Of a DNA stretch of 9,826 nucleotides, positions 1-6,421 are shown one piece after another (position 1 is the first letter of the stretch; each line of letters starts with the position of its first letter). The stretch is taken from the IMG/VR virus record IMGVR_UViG_2619619132_000009; one strand, written 5' to 3'. Made by a program: the position numbers and the translations under genes. This stretch comes from a virus. Lineage: Duplodnaviria > Heunggongvirae > Uroviricota > Caudoviricetes. A model generated the notes under the pieces. It saw only the letters and a list, made by a program, of their open reading frames with translations. It was not told where the DNA came from and searched no databases.

Positions 1-124
1 TCGGTTTACGGGAAACGGTAAACAGGGCGGCGAATGCCCTGCCATCGGACGGCACCGCCGTTGCCGCGAACAGGCTGGCAAATGCCCACACAATTAATGG
101 TGTTCCCTTTGACGGGACGCAGGA
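1..124. repeat. Left copy of the inverted repeat flanking the invertible tail-fibre segment; may extend upstream of the window
   Basis: Positions 1-124 are the exact reverse complement of 1196-1319 (checked base by base; identity breaks at 125/1195). Confidence 0.9.
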
Positions 125-353
125 TATCACTATCTCATCAGGAACAGTAACCGCCATAAGACTGGGGTCGGTGACCGCACATATGCCCGGAACATGGGAA
201 AGCTGGGATCTGAATCTGGGGGGCGGCAATGTTCTTACCGGAATTAAAGTACAGGATGTCGGTAAGAATACGGCAGATAACGTCGGCGGCGTGTATTACC
301 GGCCGTTGCAGTATCTGTTAAATGGAGCATGGGTGACGGCTGCAAGTATATAA
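1..353 (+). CDS. Phage tail-fibre protein, C-terminal portion (5' end lies upstream of the window); currently expressed tip Sv
   Basis: Open frame from position 3 to TAA at 351-353 with no stop (GLRETVNRAANALPSDGTAVAANRLANAHTINGVPFDGTQDITISSG...YYRPLQYLLNGAWVTAASI). Motifs are typical of side tail-fibre C-termini. A Tfa gene and an invertase gene lie adjacent. Confidence 0.8.
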   Translation, partial: GLRETVNRAANALPSDGTAVAANRLANAHTINGVPFDGTQDITISSGTVTAIRLGSVTAHMPGTWESWDLNLGGGNVLTGIKVQDVGKNTADNVGGVYYRPLQYLLNGAWVTAASI

Positions 354-361
354 TGATATTC

Positions 362-387
362 AGAAGGCCTTCCGGCCTTCTTTATTA
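362..387 (+). terminator. Stem-loop between the convergent tail-fibre tip and tfa genes, probable intrinsic terminator
   Basis: Perfect 8-bp stem AGAAGGCC/GGCCTTCT with a TTCC loop (362-381), followed by TTATTA. It lies between the Sv stop (353) and the tfa stop (385). Confidence 0.45.
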
Positions 388-906
388 CTGTGGCTGCTCA
401 GGCCATTTAATGGCGTTAAATTCAGCTTCTGTTTTAATGGCGGGTAGTTCCATTTTCTTCACCTGACTGATGTATGCCATCCATTGGGTAAGTGCTGCTC
501 TGTCTTCATCGCTGATGGTGCCCAGTTGTAGCTCCGTTCTCCAGTCATTAATTTTTTCATATGCCTGATTAAGATATGACTGGCGCATTGCTTCCAGTTT
601 TCTTGCGTAGTTAACCGGAATACGGGAGATTATGCCATTATCAAACTTCCAGTTTCCTGAAATATCCGTGCCTTCAGGGAGTTCATCGACCTCAACCACA
701 GAAAACCCCGCAGGATACAGCGCCGAGGCGTCCTGTGATATTGAGCAGATAACGCCGCTGTCAGGTGTTATGCAAAGTTTATATTTTTTGGTGAATAATG
801 GCAGGGATTCGTAGAAATCCTTACCATCTTCACTCTGGAAATACTGAACATTATTACCATATGGCATATTTTCAGGATAATAACGGGTTATATTTTTTAG
901 TTCCAT
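385..906 (-). CDS. tfa: Tail-fibre assembly chaperone (Tfa family)
   Basis: 173-aa ORF with a strong RBS (AGGAGG, 5-nt spacer, ATG). The C-terminal region (...DRAALTQWMAYISQVKKMELPAIKTEAEFNAIKWPEQP) resembles the conserved Tfa C-terminal domain. It sits directly downstream of the minus-strand fibre tip. Confidence 0.8.
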   Translation of the reverse strand: MELKNITRYYPENMPYGNNVQYFQSEDGKDFYESLPLFTKKYKLCITPDSGVICSISQDASALYPAGFSVVEVDELPEGTDISGNWKFDNGIISRIPVNYARKLEAMRQSYLNQAYEKINDWRTELQLGTISDEDRAALTQWMAYISQVKKMELPAIKTEAEFNAIKWPEQPQ

Positions 907-957
907 AAAATCCTCCTGGAAATAAATCTGTTTTAAAATATATTATTTACTGACTAT

Positions 958-1319
958 TTATAACTGAGATACCGTAATCCATGTACCTCCGACTAATTTT
1001 TGCAGGGGTCTGAATGCTATAAAATCGTTTGAAGCATCAACTTTACTGTCAATCTGCAGGCCTGCCATAACATTACCGTACGCAGAGTAATATGCCCCAC
1101 CGTACATTACCTGCCTGTTCTCTGCTCCCAGCCTGATATCCTGGATATATCGGGAATCCGCATCCTGCTGTGTTATACCAGAAGTGATGTTTATGTCCTG
1201 CGTCCCGTCAAAGGGAACACCATTAATTGTGTGGGCATTTGCCAGCCTGTTCGCGGCAACGGCGGTGCCGTCCGATGGCAGGGCATTCGCCGCCCTGTTT
1301 ACCGTTTCCCGTAAACCGA
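958..1319 (-). CDS. Alternative tail-fibre C-terminal cassette (Sv'), without its own start in this orientation
   Basis: Hand translation of the minus strand continues in frame from the right inverted repeat to a TAA at 958-960 (...GTQDINITSGITQQDADSRYIQDIRLGAENRQVMYGGAYYSAYGNVMAGLQIDSKVDASNDFIAFRPLQKLVGGTWITVSQL). It ends in the same RPLQxLxxGxWxT motif as the plus-strand tip and has no in-frame start codon. Confidence 0.6.
1196..1319. repeat. Right copy of the inverted repeat of the invertible tail-fibre segment
   Basis: Exact reverse complement of 1-124. Confidence 0.9.
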
Positions 1320-1331
1320 GGTTTTCAGGAA
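1306..1331. other. Putative gix/hix-like crossover site for the serine invertase (12-2-12 dyad)
   Basis: TTCCCGTAAACC-GA-GGTTTTCAGGAA: two imperfect 12-bp inverted half-sites (10/12 match) around a central GA. It resembles the recalled Mu gix site (TTCCTGTAAACCGAGGTTTTGGATAA) and sits at the outer edge of the right repeat, 65 bp before the invertase start. The left partner would be centred on window position 1. Confidence 0.5.
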
Positions 1332-1396
1332 AGCCAGGATTAACTCTGTTTTATTCCTCATGCGACAATTCCGGCTTTTTATAATAAGGAAATCGT

Positions 1397-1969
1397 ATGC
1401 TGATTGGGTATATCAGGGTGTCAACAAATGACCAGAATACGGCGCTACAAAGAAATGCGCTGGAATGTGCAGGATGTGAGCTGTTTTTCGAAGACAGAAT
1501 AAGCGGTAAGACAAGGGAGCGTCCCGGACTTAAACGCGCATTAAAGCGACTCCGGCCAGGGGATACCCTGCTGGTCTGGAAACTGGATCGCCTTGGACGC
1601 AGTATGCAGCACCTTGTCCTTTTAACAGAAGAACTCCGGCAACGCGGCGTTAACTTCCGCAGCATTACGGACAATATTGATACATCCACTCCCATGGGAC
1701 GTTTCTTTTTCCATATAATGGGCGCGCTGGCGGAAATGGAGCGGGAACTCATTATTGAACGTACACGCGCGGGTCTTGCTGCTGCCCGTGCTCAGGGGCG
1801 TCATGGCGGCAGACCTCAGAAACTGACAGAGAAAGAGCGGGAGCAAATCGCCCGTTTGCTGGCTAATGGCGAGTCCCGTAAACAAATCGCACTGATATTT
1901 GATATTGGCCTTTCCACCCTTTATCGTTATTTTCCTGCCTCACCAGCTCCGTCACCAAAAGTACCGTGA
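1397..1969 (+). CDS. pin: Serine DNA invertase of the Gin/Pin/Hin family
   Basis: 190 aa, MLIGYIRVSTNDQNTALQRNALECAGCE...VWKLDRLGRSMQHL...MGRFFFHIMGALAEMERELIIERTRAGL... Near-collinear with Mu Gin and e14 Pin as recalled, with the catalytic Ser in the RVST motif and a C-terminal HTH. Preceded by RBS AAGGA. Confidence 0.9.
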   Translation: MLIGYIRVSTNDQNTALQRNALECAGCELFFEDRISGKTRERPGLKRALKRLRPGDTLLVWKLDRLGRSMQHLVLLTEELRQRGVNFRSITDNIDTSTPMGRFFFHIMGALAEMERELIIERTRAGLAAARAQGRHGGRPQKLTEKEREQIARLLANGESRKQIALIFDIGLSTLYRYFPASPAPSPKVP

Positions 1970-2054
1970 CGCTTTTTTGAATTTCCGCAAAACACATATT
2001 TTTCAGCGGTCGCTATTCTGACTCTGTTTAATTCAGAAACAGGCAGAAAAGACG

Positions 2055-4109
2055 ATGTCAGACTCCAAGTGGAAAATGCTCTCCGCCATGCCCGGAGAGT
2101 TTTCAGTCAAGGTTGCCGGTGGCACGGTGGCATTTATTGAAAGCCCTTTCCGCCCTTCGGGTAATAAAGGGGGGATCACCTTCGCAGACTGCGTGATCCG
2201 CTTCAGCACGAAAGAGCCATTATGGGTAATGCCGGTATCCGGTAATCCCAGTGCAGAAATCACCAGTTCAGGCGTGACTGGCATCATTCCAATCACATCT
2301 GACGTGGCCGGAACGCTCACGCCCTCCGACTGGAATGCACCGGATAACGCCGGGCCTTCCGGTAGCACGAATGGCAGCAGTTCAGAGCCGGAATATTACT
2401 TTGTTGTCATTCTCGCGGGTCAGTCAAATGGCATGGCCTACGGCGAGGGGCTGCCGTTACCGGATTCGTTTGACCGCCCGGACCCACGCATTAAGCAACT
2501 GGCACGCCGCAGTACGGTAACGCCCAACGGTACGTCGTGTACATACAACGACATCATTCCGGCAGACCACTGCCTGCATGATGTTCAGGATATGAGCGGG
2601 ATAAACCACCCGAAAGCTGATCTGGCAAAAGGCCAGTACGGGACTGTCGGTCAGGGGTTGCATATTGCCAAAAAACTGCTTCCCTATATCCCACAGAATG
2701 CCGGGATACTTCTGGTGCCCTGTTGTCGTGGCGGGTCAGCATTCACCACTGGAGCCGACGGCTCATTCAGTGAGGCCAGCGGTGCTTCCGCTGATTCTTC
2801 ACGCTGGGGGGCCGGTAAACCTCTGTATCAGGACCTGGTAAGCCGCACCAAAGTCGCGCTGGCGAAAAACCCGAAAAACAAACTTCTGGCTGTGGTCTGG
2901 ATGCAGGGAGAGGCAGACCTTGCCTCAGGAAGCCAGCAGCATAATAGTTTATTCACGGCCATGGTTCAGCAGTTCAGAACTGACCTGGCTCCGCTTGCTG
3001 CGCAGTGCGTGAGTGGAAATGCCACCACGGTGCCGTGGATTTGCGGTGATACCACGTATTACTGGAAAAACGCTGGCACCGATAAATATGAGGCAGTATA
3101 CGGTGGCTACAAAGGCAAGGAAGCACAGAAAATTTTCTTTGTACCGTTCCTGACGGATGAGAATGGACAGAGCACGCCAACGAATGCTCCGGCGGAAGAC
3201 CCGGATATTGTGGCTGTCGGGTATTACGGTGCAGCATCCCGAACCCAGGGCAGTTTTGTTTCGACACAGCGTGACAGCCATTTCAGCTCATGGGCACGCA
3301 GGGGCGTCATTTCAGACCGTCTGGCCTCAGCTATTATGCTCCATGCAGGGCGCACGGCTGAACTGATGCGCGGGCAGACCGTGACACCACCGGATGAGAA
3401 GCCGTCACCTGATACACCATCAAAACCGTCCACGCCACCCGCAGACACCACGACGATGAGTACGCTATTTGCTTACCGGGCATCTGAGTCTGAAGGACGG
3501 TTGACACCACAGGGTTGGGCTGCCGGAGGTGGCAAGGCTCAAATCGTGGATGATGCCGGAGCCAGCGGGGGTAAGGCAATGAAACTGACCAAGGAAACAG
3601 GAAGAGCCCCCTGGTACCTTGAGCATGATGCTGGTAATGGTGCGGACCTGCTGGGTAAAGGTGGTCTTGTCAGTTGTCGTTTTAAACTCGATGGCGCGCT
3701 TACGGCTAATCAGTACGCACTGGCGCTGTACTGGCCGGTTTCTGCCCTGCCGCAAGGGGTTACTCTGGAAGGAAATGCCGGTCATAACCTGCTGGCATCG
3801 TTCTACGTACAGAGCGATGCCACAGACCTTAACGTGATGTATCACAAAGGAAACACGGCGCAGAACACGAAGCTGGGGTCATTCGGCGCATTTAATAACG
3901 AATGGCATACGCTGGGCTTCCGTTTTGCCGGTAACAACAGTATTGAGGTGACGCCGGTCATTGATGGTAAGGACGGGACACCATTCATGCTGTCGCAGTC
4001 TCCGGTCGGCACGTTTACGGCAGACAAGTTGCGCGTGACCGATATCACTAAAAATGCGACTTACCCGGTACTGATTGACAGTATCGTGGTGGAAGTGAAT
4101 AACGCGTAA
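2055..4109 (+). CDS. Prophage NanS-p-like sialate O-acetylesterase (SGNH/SASA esterase) with N-terminal extension and C-terminal lectin-like domain
   Basis: 684 aa. The core YYFVVILAGQSNGMAYGEGLPLPD...PRIKQLARRSTVTP...GILLVPCCRGGSAFT...VWMQGEAD resembles recalled E. coli NanS/YjhS and prophage NanS-p proteins. A P/T/S-rich linker (PPDEKPSPDTPSKPSTPPADTTT) is followed by about 230 aa that look like a beta-sandwich carbohydrate-binding domain. Confidence 0.6.
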   Translation: MSDSKWKMLSAMPGEFSVKVAGGTVAFIESPFRPSGNKGGITFADCVIRFSTKEPLWVMPVSGNPSAEITSSGVTGIIPITSDVAGTLTPSDWNAPDNAGPSGSTNGSSSEPEYYFVVILAGQSNGMAYGEGLPLPDSFDRPDPRIKQLARRSTVTPNGTSCTYNDIIPADHCLHDVQDMSGINHPKADLAKGQYGTVGQGLHIAKKLLPYIPQNAGILLVPCCRGGSAFTTGADGSFSEASGASADSSRWGAGKPLYQDLVSRTKVALAKNPKNKLLAVVWMQGEADLASGSQQHNSLFTAMVQQFRTDLAPLAAQCVSGNATTVPWICGDTTYYWKNAGTDKYEAVYGGYKGKEAQKIFFVPFLTDENGQSTPTNAPAEDPDIVAVGYYGAASRTQGSFVSTQRDSHFSSWARRGVISDRLASAIMLHAGRTAELMRGQTVTPPDEKPSPDTPSKPSTPPADTTTMSTLFAYRASESEGRLTPQGWAAGGGKAQIVDDAGASGGKAMKLTKETGRAPWYLEHDAGNGADLLGKGGLVSCRFKLDGALTANQYALALYWPVSALPQGVTLEGNAGHNLLASFYVQSDATDLNVMYHKGNTAQNTKLGSFGAFNNEWHTLGFRFAGNNSIEVTPVIDGKDGTPFMLSQSPVGTFTADKLRVTDITKNATYPVLIDSIVVEVNNA

Positions 4110-4124
4110 GCAGGATAAAAAAAT

Positions 4125-4157
4125 GCCGCCGGTAAGGGAAAACAAGAAACCGGCGGC
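4125..4157 (-). terminator. GC-rich stem-loop flanked by A-runs on the plus strand (T-runs on the minus strand); terminator-like, orientation favours leftward transcripts
   Basis: 9-bp perfect stem GCCGCCGGT/ACCGGCGGC (4125-4133, 4149-4157), preceded by AAAAAAAT and followed by AAAAAG. Confidence 0.35.
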
Positions 4158-4253
4158 AAAAAGATCGTTATATCCAAAGCAAAAAATGCAGTGCACCTTT
4201 TTACCTAACAGATATTACCGGTGTCAACACCATGTCAATAATTGGGAGGGATA

Positions 4254-4436
4254 ATGACATTTTTACAGCTTATTTTATTGTATTTCTGCACGGCAGTATG
4301 TGCGTTATATCTGGTGAGTGGTGGTTATAAGGCCATCAGAAATTATGTTCGCCGCAAAATTGAGGACGCAGCAGCTGAAAAACTCAGTAAAACAGCGCAG
4401 GTAACTCCGCTCCCAAAAGACCCGACCCAGCCCTGA
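4254..4436 (+). CDS. Small hypothetical membrane protein (60 aa, one N-terminal hydrophobic helix)
   Basis: RBS GGGAGGG (4244-4250) then ATG at 4254. MTFLQLILLYFCTAVCALYLVSGGYKAIRNYVRRKIEDAAAEKL... The track's TTG at 4242 overlaps the RBS, so 4254 is preferred. Confidence 0.5.
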   Translation: MTFLQLILLYFCTAVCALYLVSGGYKAIRNYVRRKIEDAAAEKLSKTAQVTPLPKDPTQP

Positions 4437-4471
4437 TTGCAGGGCTTTATTCCCGCATAAGGAGGATATAC

Positions 4472-4726
4472 ATGCCAGAAATTAAAGGCACCGTCACTGA
4501 AGACCTGGTAAAACAGGCACTGTATTCCGGTGAAGTAAATAAGTTGCTGAAAGCGCAGGTCCGCAAGGATTTTGAGGCACAAATCGACACTTACGTTGAT
4601 GAAGTGCTGGCAAAACTTATTGGGCCAGCAGTTGCGGCCAGTGATGCTGATAATGAGCCGAAAACCGACGCGCAGCCAGAGCAACCAGACCCGGCTCAGC
4701 CCGGAACTGACAGTACCATGATGTAA
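4472..4726 (+). CDS. Small hypothetical protein (84 aa, acidic Pro-rich C-terminus)
   Basis: Strong RBS AAGGAGG with a 6-nt spacer before ATG 4472. No recognisable family. Confidence 0.55.
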   Translation: MPEIKGTVTEDLVKQALYSGEVNKLLKAQVRKDFEAQIDTYVDEVLAKLIGPAVAASDADNEPKTDAQPEQPDPAQPGTDSTMM

Positions 4727-4731
4727 CAATA

Positions 4732-4759
4732 CAAACCGGTGGTGTCCTCTGCCGGTTTG
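4732..4759 (+). terminator. Weak stem-loop after the 84-aa ORF
   Basis: CAAACCGG...CCGGTTTG 8-bp stem with a 12-nt loop immediately after the stop at 4724-4726; no clear U-tract. Confidence 0.3.
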
Positions 4760-4986
4760 ACACTAATGAAAACATCTTTGCCGCTATCCAGCCATATGTA
4801 ATCGCTGGATAGTATTTCGTATTCAGAAATATAGCTGCTTATGGAGCAGTCAATCCTGCTTCCCCATCCGGGCAGGCAAATGAACCGGTATCATTAGTCC
4901 GATTCACGCTTTTGTAGAATCGTTCCCAGAATGCTATACAGCTCATTAGCCTGTTGCTCCATCATTGAGACGGAGGCTATACGGTG

Positions 4987-4995
4987 CAAAGTGAT
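4987..4995. repeat. Left 9-bp target-site duplication of IS1 (CAAAGTGAT)
   Basis: Identical 9-mer directly abuts both IS1 ends (4987-4995 and 5764-5772). Confidence 0.85.
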
Positions 4996-5050
4996 GGTAA
5001 TGCTGCCAACTTACTGATTTAGTGTATGATGGTGATTTTAAGGTGCTTGC

Positions 5051-5326
5051 GTGGCTTCCATTTCCATCAGATGTCCTTCCTGCTCCGCTACTGAAGGCGT
5101 GGTGCGTAACGGCAAAAGTACTGCCGGATATCAGCGCTATCTCTGCTCTCATTGCCGTAAAACATGGCAACTACAGTTCACTTACACCGCCTCTCAGCCC
5201 GGTAAGCACCAGAAAATCATTGATATGGCCATGAATGGCGTCGGATGTCGCGCCAGTGCACGCATTATGGGCGTTGGCCTCAACACGGTTTTACGTCACT
5301 TAAAAAACTCAGGCCGCAGTCGGTAA
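5051..5326 (+). CDS. insA: IS1 InsA (zinc-finger/HTH transposition regulator)
   Basis: [43 protein letters not shown]...[14 protein letters not shown], 91 aa, GTG start. Confidence 0.9.
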
Positions 5327-5748
5327 CCTCGCGCATACAACCGGGCAGTGATGTGATTGTCTGCGCTGAAATGGACGAACAGTGGGGCTACGTCGGTGCT
5401 AAATCACGTCAGCGCTGGCTGTTTTACGCGTATGACAGGATACGGAGGACGGTTGTGGCGCACGTCTTCGGTGAACGCACTCTGGCCACACTGGAGCGTC
5501 TTCTGAGCCTGCTGTCGGCCTTTGAGGTCGTGGTATAGATGACGGATGGCTGGCCGCTGTATGAATCACGCCTGAAGGGAAAGCTGCACGTTATCAGCAA
5601 GCGTTACACTCAGCGCATTGAGCGACATAATCTGAATCTGAGACAACATCTGGCAAGGCTGGGACGGAAGTCACTGTCGTTCTCAAAATCGGTGGAGCTG
5701 CATGACAAGGTCATCGGGCATTATCTGAACATAAAACACTATCAGTAA
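5245..5748 (+). pseudogene. insB: IS1 insB frame interrupted by an in-frame amber codon
   Basis: The InsB frame reads ...LSAFEVVV then TAG at 5536-5538, then [69 protein letters not shown] in the same frame. Canonical IS1 as recalled has ...VVIW MTDGW here, implying TGG to TAG. Confidence 0.7.
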
Positions 5749-5763
5749 GTTGGAGTCATTACC

Positions 5764-5772
5764 CAAAGTGAT
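5764..5772. repeat. Right 9-bp target-site duplication of IS1 (CAAAGTGAT)
   Basis: Identical to 4987-4995. Confidence 0.85.
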
Positions 5773-6154
5773 TTCAGGAGGTGGCACACCTCCATCTTCT
5801 TGCTGTGGAGGAAAAACATAAGATTTAATAAAAAAGTTGAAGCATATGAACTCTCCCGCACTCGAACTGTATTTGCAGGCATCTGAATAATCGGAAAAAT
5901 AATCATTATAGATTTCCGCATTTTCAATCATTTTTCGATTTCTCGTCGTTACATGATTGTCCATAGCAGCCTCTTACGCTGGCAATTAACCAATTGACTT
6001 CTATAAATTAGTTGATTTGTTTGCTTTGCGGTATTCAAATGTACAATCATTCAGCACTTATGCGTTACAGCACCGTTTAAAATTAGTGATCAAACTCATA
6101 AATTTTCGCTAATGACATTTCGTGTTATTTGTTGTATCAATTAAATAAATCAAA

Positions 6155-6177
6155 TCGATCGTTTTTGTCGATCGATT
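6155..6177. promoter_or_regulatory. Perfect palindrome ATCGATCG-N7-CGATCGAT carrying two Dam (GATC) sites, upstream of com-mom; candidate methylation-sensitive operator
   Basis: 8-bp perfect inverted repeat with a 7-bp T-rich spacer. GATC at 6157-6160 and 6170-6173, with a third GATC at 6088-6091, all within about 135 bp upstream of the com ATG in an AT-rich divergent intergenic region. Confidence 0.45.
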
Positions 6178-6220
6178 GAGTGATAAAGATATCAACAACA
6201 AAGCAGGAGGTTATGCGGCC

Positions 6221-6421
6221 ATGTATCGAAACATACGGTGCCGACATTGTAACAAGCTACTGGCACGAGCCAGCTTCAGTTATCTGGAAGTTAAATGTCC
6301 GCGCTGTAAAACCCTCAATCAAATCACATCTCAGAGCGCCACAGAGCACCCCACATACACAAGGAAATCCTGTCGTGGGGAACAGAAAGCAAGTTACATC
6401 CCGTATCATCAGCACGCCTGA
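6221..6421 (+). CDS. com: Com-like zinc-ribbon translational activator (phage Mu Com family)
   Basis: [35 protein letters not shown]... has Cys at 7, 10, 26 and 29 (CxxC-N15-CxxC) and strong resemblance to recalled Mu Com (MKSIRCKNCNKLL...IRCPRCK). RBS AGGAGG lies 10 nt upstream; the 3' end overlaps the next gene. Confidence 0.75.

Follow-up and report, generated by a model that had tools for sequence, protein, structure and literature searches.

A NanS-p-type sialate O-acetylesterase with a distinct N-terminal domain at the right end of a Mu-like prophage

NanS-p esterases have so far been studied almost only as cargo of Shiga toxin (Stx)-converting and other lambdoid prophages, where they help pathogenic Escherichia coli feed on O-acetylated mucin sialic acids. 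We analyzed a stretch of DNA from IMG/VR record IMGVR_UViG_2619619132_000009 (Caudoviricetes; 9,826 nucleotides; here called the window), in which a gene for an enzyme of this type lies directly behind a DNA invertase gene. This locus raises two questions, i.e., what kind of phage carries the esterase and what the N-terminal region of the protein represents. The locus is best filed as an architectural variant of NanS-p that is carried by Mu-like prophages. The enzyme itself is ordinary. Its real distinguishing feature is the N-terminal region, because this region replaces the DUF1737 domain of the lambdoid enzymes, with a break exactly at codon 111. The gene and the parts of its product are as follows.

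2055-4109, + strand: complete gene for the NanS-p-type sialate O-acetylesterase variant (list of open reading frames; stop codon at 4107-4109).
2055-2300, + strand: N-terminal domain (residues 1 to 82), small, predicted to be all-beta, without a described family and distinct from DUF1737.
2301-2387, + strand: flexible linker rich in Gly, Ser, Pro, and Asn (residues 83 to 111; predicted local distance difference test [pLDDT] score of <50), with the lambdoid nanS-p breakpoint at its 3' end (nucleotide 2385).
2388-3344, + strand: SASA/SGNH esterase core (residues 112 to 430), placed by phmmer against PDB 3PT5, by Pfam SASA, and by motif positions.
3375-3458, + strand: interdomain linker rich in Pro, Thr, and Ser (residues 441 to 468), from a composition scan.
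3459-4106, + strand: C-terminal lectin-like jelly-roll domain (DUF6645; residues 469 to 684), from phmmer against 6YP6 and from Pfam.

The open reading frame (ORF) begins with ATG, encodes 684 amino acids, and is exactly the one described in the initial annotation of the window, both in the ORF list and in RefSeq. Other E. coli genomes have the identical ORF in RefSeq (WP_001284083.1, "DUF6645 domain-containing protein"), among them E. coli 600029, where it lies in the prophage (locus L001). The protein is 100% identical to the representative of a 90%-identity cluster with 599 member sequences (P0004), which some sources name "sialate O-acetylesterase." No segment resembling a signal peptide or a transmembrane helix was detected by hydropathy. 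NCBIfam gave no match for the whole protein, and the PHROGs matches were to PHROG 143 (function unknown; only from residue 71 onward) and to PHROG 25867 ("tail protein"; E = 1e-6). The protein consists of three folded parts, namely, the N-terminal domain, the SASA/SGNH core, and the lectin-like C-terminal domain. As far as can be read from its sequence, the gene is intact and encodes a phage-type, sialic acid-de-O-acetylating enzyme of the NanS-p family.

The catalytic core supports the NanS-p-like identity that had been proposed for the protein. A profile search for SASA and DUF1737-type domains, which the initial annotation had called for, returned Pfam SASA (PF03629) over residues 117 to 312 (51.3 bits, with a cutoff of 24.8; profile positions 4 to 157 of 226), while DUF1737 was not found in the N terminus. 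Among all PDB chains, the E. coli NanS/YjhS structure 3PT5 matched residues 110 to 428 (phmmer; E = 1.8e-117), and this alignment covers the remainder of the SASA domain beyond the Pfam match. The E values of 1e-98 to 1e-117 against solved structures exclude a chance match. SASA family members are characterized by a GQSN motif with the nucleophilic Ser and an oxyanion-hole Gln, by a Block III (H)QGE motif, and by a Block V catalytic His (PMC9487903). All three features are kept in the window protein, where GQSN occupies residues 122 to 125 (Ser124, codon 2424-2426), WMQGE residues 282 to 286 (MQGE, 283 to 286), and DSHF residues 407 to 410 (His409, codon 3279-3281), each aligned with the equivalent 3PT5 residues. 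The catalytic assignments are based on this alignment together with the review cited above. Absence of a Ser/His/Asp triad had been named as a finding that would speak against the esterase assignment. Ser124 and His409 are indeed conserved, but loss of the triad is unsuitable as a refuting test, because the Block V Asp is missing from EcNanS itself (PMC9487903) and none is to be expected in the window protein. Most records of annotated NanS-p/SASA esterases of Stx phages are 62 to 69% identical to the window protein. Such NanS-p enzymes de-O-acetylate 5-N-acetyl-9-O-acetylneuraminic acid (Neu5,9Ac2) and mucin glycans (PMC8065619).

The C-terminal half also bears out the initial description, which had listed a Pro/Thr/Ser-rich linker and a lectin-like domain besides the GQSN core. 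In the linker, the P/T/S content reaches 68% in 25-residue windows, and the proportion of nonsynonymous differences (pN) is the highest among all segments of the protein. Residues 469 to 683 matched PDB 6YP6 (E = 7e-98), a 218-residue chain deposited as "NanS-p" that represents the crystallized C-terminal portion (position 423 to 645) of phi24B vb_24B_21; this structural work dates from 2020, as given in PMC10462455 and PMC8065619. Pfam DUF6645 (PF20350) covers residues 533 to 650 (226 bits; E = 7e-68). The proposed sugar-binding residues of the phi24B domain are Y510, Y515, Y540, and F611 (PMC10462455), and their counterparts in the window protein (Y554, Y559, Y584, and F654) are conserved aromatic residues. 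Thus, the protein has the NanS-homologous catalytic domain and the C-terminal DUF6645 jelly roll with conserved aromatics by which NanS-p proteins are recognized.

The N-terminal domain presents a different picture. The initial annotation had left the function of the first ~110 residues unclear, and residues 1 to 115 indeed have no Pfam match even at E ≤ 10; DUF1737 was rejected as a candidate for this region on the same grounds. No PHROG family was assigned to the domain (the sole match had an E value of 0.022). With a five-sequence alignment, AlphaFold2 predicted a compact five-strand, all-beta core (residues 7 to 79; pLDDT of about 80 to 89), followed by a disordered linker (residues 83 to 111; pLDDT of <50). 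DUF1737 folds into one helix and three strands (preprint 10.64898/2026.04.10.717836), and the predicted all-beta fold is unlike it. The domain was compared with its counterpart in a second Mu-like lineage, i.e., a Mu-like phage that sits within an Stx2c-converting phage record (L004; 59% identity). In a rough Nei-Gojobori calculation, pN was 0.24 and the proportion of synonymous differences (pS) was 0.76, as against a pN of 0.19 and a pS of 0.72 for the esterase core in the same comparison. A pN well below pS is consistent with purifying selection on the domain. On the basis of the pLDDT scores and these proportions, the N-terminal region is a folded, selected unit.

Relatives of this domain are scarce. 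A word-index protein search with the 115-residue N terminus returned three fragments only, and an exhaustive HMMER search of 1.84 billion representative proteins yielded, besides fragments of this protein, a single distant relative (P0125; 30% identity to the N-terminal domain over residues 5 to 101). P0125 carries the N-terminal domain followed by a Pro/Thr-rich linker and "PEYYFVIPVAGQSN," as in the window protein. The domain is conserved down to this 30% identity, with its hydrophobic-core pattern. The locus therefore defines a small protein domain without a family assignment.

The relationship to the lambdoid enzymes is that of a domain exchange. Homologues of the esterase fall into two architectural classes, i.e., proteins of 678 to 691 amino acids without PF08410 (DUF1737) and proteins of ~647 amino acids with PF08410, its presence in each class having been taken from precomputed Pfam. 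The window protein belongs to the former class, whose members cover 98 to 100% of the query. In members of the latter class, the alignment starts near residue 95 to 110, and identity over the esterase and C-terminal domains reaches ~90%. At the nucleotide level, positions 2385 to 4312 are 88% identical (blastn) to a lambdoid locus (L027). The match opens at codon 111 ("EPEYY," the start of the esterase domain) and closes at 4312 inside the DUF1378 gene. This lambdoid locus carries a close homologue of the esterase (P0028) in the order Q-like antiterminator, methylase, nanS-p (DUF1737, SASA, and DUF6645), DUF1378, and DUF826, followed by holin, lysozyme, Rz, and terminase genes. According to these alignments, an unrelated ~80-residue beta domain plus linker stands in place of the lambdoid DUF1737 domain, and the replacement is exact at the linker/esterase boundary. 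Lambdoid prophages also carry the esterase-DUF1378-DUF826 block, with Q/stx on one side of it and the lysis genes on the other. Of this lambdoid late-region setting (downstream of Q/stx and upstream of the lysis genes), the window keeps only the DUF1378/DUF826 pair.

The neighborhood of the gene identifies the carrier. The following features surround the esterase gene in the window.

1-1319, no strand assigned: invertible tail-fiber segment (analogue of the G segment), from an inverted repeat and the orientations of the tail-fiber assembly gene.
385-906, - strand: tail-fiber assembly gene, inside the invertible segment.
1397-1969, + strand: Gin-type serine DNA invertase (Pfam Resolvase and HTH_7; PHROG 125, "DNA invertase").
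4124-4158, no strand assigned: GC-rich 10-bp hairpin directly past the esterase stop codon, from RNA folding.
4242-4436, + strand: DUF1378 small membrane-type protein (Pfam E = 1e-31), a conserved downstream partner of nanS-p, in the same order in lambdoid L027.
4472-4726, + strand: DUF826 small protein (Pfam E = 6e-16), the second conserved downstream partner, also in the same order in L027.
6221-6421, + strand: com, from the RefSeq annotation of L001 mapped onto the window.
6375-7112, + strand: mom (Pfam Mom; E = 2e-77).

By megablast against 5,426 complete E. coli genomes, positions 1 to 7240 of the window matched at 99.8%, broken only by an IS1 element. In E. coli 600029 (NZ_CM128582.1), the matched region forms the right end of a prophage encoding a Mu gpT-family major head protein, a DUF935 portal, sheath, tube, tape measure, and DNA circularization proteins, and a Mu-type baseplate (V, GP46, J, and YmfQ). 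Next come a tail fiber gene, an inverted tail-fiber assembly gene and partial fiber gene, and a recombinase gene, and then the esterase, DUF1378, DUF826, a small reverse ORF, Com, Mom, and a disrupted host gene. In the window, the order is tail-fiber switch, gin, esterase, DUF1378, DUF826, IS1, com/mom, prophage end, and disrupted flu. Across strains, prophages of this kind are inserted at flu, sgrR-like, flgL, and xdhA-like sites, with up to three copies per genome. The Mu-type head, portal, and baseplate genes, the Gin-type invertase with its invertible fiber segment, com/mom, and the varied insertion sites are all features of Mu-like prophages. Judging by this gene content, the window holds the right end of a prophage that is not lambdoid but Mu-like and transposable. 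The initial annotation had linked the gene to lambdoid prophages; this stands for the type of enzyme, i.e., NanS-p, but not for the element, which is Mu-like and carries the gene between gin and com/mom.

The N-terminal domain follows this carrier closely. Its coding DNA is present in 32 of the 5,426 complete genomes (~0.6%), and 36 loci were collected from complete E. coli genomes, the Mu-like phage in the Stx2c-converting phage record, IMG/VR, and metagenomes. All 36 share the order baseplate J, fiber, tail-fiber assembly, (gin), esterase, DUF1378, DUF826, and mom. A scan of the GTDB species-representative genomes for more distant copies of the domain gave none, and scans of IMG/VR and metagenomes gave E. 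coli-type copies only. The contig of the distant relative P0125 (L030; 57% GC; GCA_037428405.1) is also Mu-like, with tape measure, DNA_circ_N, Mu Gp45, GP46, baseplate J, and Mu Gp48 genes. These are followed by a fiber gene, inverted chaperone and fiber genes, a resolvase-type invertase gene, and then, in region 8792-10461, two small ORFs with a clear intrinsic terminator ahead of the esterase homologue, in which the contig ends after 153 codons. Thus, no copy of the domain was found apart from this esterase, and each of the 37 loci examined is a Mu-like prophage with the fusion at this position. In a mosaic allele from a metagenome (L033, 1793-3784), the N-terminal domain is 100% identical to that of the window protein, the esterase 72%, and the C-terminal domain 41%. 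This pattern indicates recombination between nanS-p alleles downstream of the N-terminal domain. It implies that alleles trade their catalytic and lectin-like parts and that the N-terminal domain remains with the Mu-like backbone.

The invertase gene ends 85 bp upstream of the esterase start codon, which confirms the placement of the esterase immediately after the invertase, and the spacer is conserved. gin is absent from 12 of the 36 loci, in which the esterase is kept. The gin-less relatives retain the last ~70 bp of gin before the esterase (L002, 3900-4216; L003, 3900-4216). As this remnant shows, the adjacency of the two genes is ancestral, with gin lost secondarily. Adjacency to the invertase is not essential, as about a third of the related prophages have lost gin yet keep the esterase.

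The absence of a strong terminator after the invertase gene, also noted initially, holds up weakly. A pattern scan found no terminator between 1969 and 2055, and the sole hairpin, which spans the gin stop codon (1950-1978; 6-bp stem, 10-nt loop, and U6), has a free energy (dG) of -6.6 kcal/mol and a z score of -0.85, i.e., it is no better than shuffled sequences. As there is no terminator beyond this weak hairpin, read-through from gin would be possible. One sigma-70-like match (9/12) lies upstream of the esterase gene, inside the end of gin (1899-1927), and such a match is no more than expected by chance. Since a terminator separates the two genes in the P0125 contig, the linkage between gin and the esterase is positional and not obligatorily transcriptional.

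The arms of the inverted repeat around the invertible segment (1-142, cut by the window edge, and 1178-1319) are 95% complementary. Among the related loci (L005-L040), the tail-fiber assembly gene is on the plus strand in 6 of the 21 copies with gin and in none of the 12 copies without gin, which fits an active switch that loss of gin freezes. No match to the Mu gix consensus was seen in the window at ≤3 mismatches. The switch looks asymmetric. In the present orientation, the C terminus of the expressed fiber ends at 353 and is not followed by a chaperone gene in the same direction; the sole tail-fiber assembly gene (385-906) and the alternative fiber C terminus (958-1332) are both on the minus strand.

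Taken as a whole, the observations are best explained by a NanS-p-family sialate 9-O-acetylesterase that is the right-end cargo of a Mu-like prophage and whose N-terminal module would serve as a phage-type-specific adaptor; we consider this explanation highly probable. Since the protein has no signal peptide, it would be made in the cytoplasm and, on lysis of the cell by the induced prophage, would come into contact with its substrate. This substrate is presumably either 9-O-acetylated sialic acid in mucin glycans or free Neu5,9Ac2, from which the enzyme would remove O-acetyl groups while the C-terminal domain holds it on glycans. The least certain step is the role of the N-terminal module, which may tether the enzyme to the Mu-like particle by analogy with DUF1737 on the capsid hexons of phi24B. 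In that phage, gp84 (NanS-p) is among the most abundant virion proteins, hexamers of its DUF1737 sit as plugs in the central hexons of the T=9 capsid, and its esterase and jelly-roll parts are cleaved off on storage (10.64898/2026.04.10.717836). If the preprint is right, a Mu-like myovirus would need a different adaptor, because its head is unrelated to that of phi24B. The strict association with Mu-like prophages, the flexible linker of ~30 residues after the domain, and the clean breakpoint all fit a phage-specific tether, and by this analogy anchoring of the enzyme to a Mu-like virion through the N-terminal domain is plausible. The initial annotation had suggested that the C-terminal domain could target the enzyme to the virion. 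A link to the virion is reasonable, but in phi24B it is the N-terminal DUF1737 and not the C-terminal domain that binds it. Extending the analogy, NanS-p proteins in general may be glycan esterases of modular design that are displayed on virions, with an N-terminal domain that acts as a phage-specific anchor and can be exchanged, DUF1737 being the one for the phi24B-type capsid and the new ~80-residue domain a hitherto unrecognized one for Mu-like particles. We advance this wider proposal tentatively and stop short of calling it probable.

Several observations weigh against an anchoring role or the associated late expression. No similarity of the N-terminal domain to known capsid, tail, or decoration proteins was found, and none of the prophage's own ORFs is a paralogue of it at E < 0.1. 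DUF1737 is mostly a stand-alone domain (10.64898/2026.04.10.717836), whereas the exhaustive HMMER pass found no stand-alone relatives of the N-terminal domain. The capsid-binding role of DUF1737, if right, comes from that one preprint. The full-length AlphaFold2 model of the esterase, built from a shallow, near-identical alignment, had a mean pLDDT of 47 and was not used. The esterase gene lies after gin, outside the canonical Mu head and tail operons, a position that leaves late expression putative, and in the P0125 contig a terminator and two small ORFs stand between the invertase and the esterase.

According to a second explanation, the esterase is a lysogen-benefit enzyme (a "moron") and never part of the virion, being either freed on lysis or, like NanS, active in the cytoplasm after read-through from gin. 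Constitutive expression of gin would then provide low-level read-through, for which the lack of a strong terminator between the genes leaves room, and the N-terminal domain would serve for oligomerization or as a second carbohydrate-binding module. Its weak fold matches to small cupin-type barrels, several of which are dimerization domains (e.g., the CENP-C/Mif2 cupins), and its dissimilarity to structural phage proteins are both in keeping with this idea, as is the ability of NanS-p alleles to enable lysogens to grow on Neu5,9Ac2 (PMC8065619). However, the explanation does not account for the presence of DUF1737 in lambdoid phages versus the new domain in Mu-like phages, which holds even at 30% identity, or for a swap exactly at the domain boundary, and the homologous lambdoid protein is a virion component of phi24B. 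We see a pure lysogen-benefit role as a real contender that nevertheless falls somewhat below the probable.

A third explanation is that of a tail-associated accessory enzyme, anchored near the baseplate or fibers by the N-terminal domain, that strips O-acetyl groups from O antigen or a K1-type polysialic capsule for adsorption. Esterase tailspikes of other phages provide a precedent for surface O-acetyl removal that aids adsorption. Moreover, the gene adjoins the tail-fiber and invertase module, and SASA domains occur in annotated tail proteins (the PHROG 25867 match and Arthrobacter phage Bolt007 "minor tail protein"). Unmasking of receptors has been raised as a possible role of NanS-p (review PMC8065619). 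On the other hand, the esterase and C-terminal domains share ~90% identity with lambdoid alleles whose tested substrates are sialic acids and mucin, no similarity of the N-terminal domain to Mu fiber or baseplate attachment regions was found, and the phi24B homologue is on the capsid and not on the tail. Overall, we consider a tail enzyme unlikely.

Finally, that the locus is a decaying remnant of recombination between lambdoid and Mu-like phages, with N-terminal junk and an inactive protein, is extremely improbable: the IS1 insertion in the window and the missing family assignment of the N-terminal region point that way, but the 684-codon ORF is intact with all catalytic motifs, the identical protein occurs in a cluster of 599 sequences, and the N-terminal domain is conserved to 30% identity, has a confidently predicted fold, and shows a pN well below pS.

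No description of a Mu-like NanS-p variant was found in the literature, and databases label the protein generically. The locus matters because it shows that the same esterase cassette has moved into an entirely different phage type, i.e., a Mu-like transposable myovirus. In addition, the clean exchange of the module that binds the capsid according to the preprint gives a direct handle on the question of whether virion display through phage-specific anchors is general among these enzymes. If the enzyme is indeed anchored, the particles of Mu-like phages from gut E. coli would themselves bear an enzyme that modifies mucin, and virion display as a general property would bear on phage adherence to mucus and on remodeling of the mucin niche by prophage induction. 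If the anchor idea is wrong, what remains is a known enzyme with a new domain architecture, located in an unusual prophage.

Downstream of the esterase, the hairpin at 4124-4158 has a 15-nt loop, a dG of -20 to -23 kcal/mol, and z scores of -3.7 (plus strand) and -4.3 (minus strand). It is conserved and lies inside the block common to lambdoid prophages. On the plus strand it is preceded by A7 and followed by A5. It resembles an intrinsic terminator for leftward transcription only, because a U7 tract is present on the minus strand only. The IS1 element (4996-5763; 768 bp) is flanked by a 9-bp direct duplication (CAAAGTGAT), is not present in any closely related genome examined, and interrupts the small reverse-strand hypothetical ORF between DUF826 and com. 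Just upstream of com/mom, at ~6150-6180, there is a cluster of GATC sites (ATCGATCGTTTTTGTCGATCGAT), which calls to mind the region through which Dam methylation controls mom in Mu. Beyond the prophage end (~7240), the similarity to other genomes is lost. The ORF at 7242-9200 encodes an Ag43/Cah autotransporter that matched the NCBIfam model only from position 298 of 948, i.e., the first ~297 residues are gone, and the prophage thus appears to have inserted into flu and split it.

Three known systems can be compared with this locus. The chromosomal NanS of E. coli (YjhS; 3PT5) is homologous over nearly its whole length to residues 110 to 428 of the window protein and shares the GQSN Ser, the MQGE motif, and the His. 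In contrast, NanS is a single-domain protein of ~326 amino acids in the nan regulon, whereas the window protein is phage borne and adds an N-terminal domain, two linkers, and a lectin-like C-terminal domain.

The right end of bacteriophage Mu has the order invertible tail-fiber (G) segment, gin, and com/mom. The window shows the same order, with a Gin-type invertase, and both elements occupy varied chromosomal sites in different genomes. To our knowledge, Mu has no gene between gin and com/mom that resembles the ~2.7-kb esterase-DUF1378-DUF826 cassette.

The closest relatives are the NanS-p proteins of lambdoid/Stx prophages (e.g., 933W L0105/z1466 and phi24B vb_24B_21, i.e., gp84), which share the SASA core, the Pro/Thr/Ser linker, and the DUF6645 domain. 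The identity is ~90% for some alleles and ~65% to 933W. They likewise have DUF1378 and DUF826 downstream and lack a signal peptide. However, the lambdoid proteins carry the DUF1737 capsid-binding domain where the window protein has the unrelated ~80-residue, putatively all-beta domain and a ~30-residue linker. Furthermore, lambdoid nanS-p lies between Q/stx and the holin gene, whereas the gene described here lies between gin and com/mom of a Mu-like, myovirus-type prophage.

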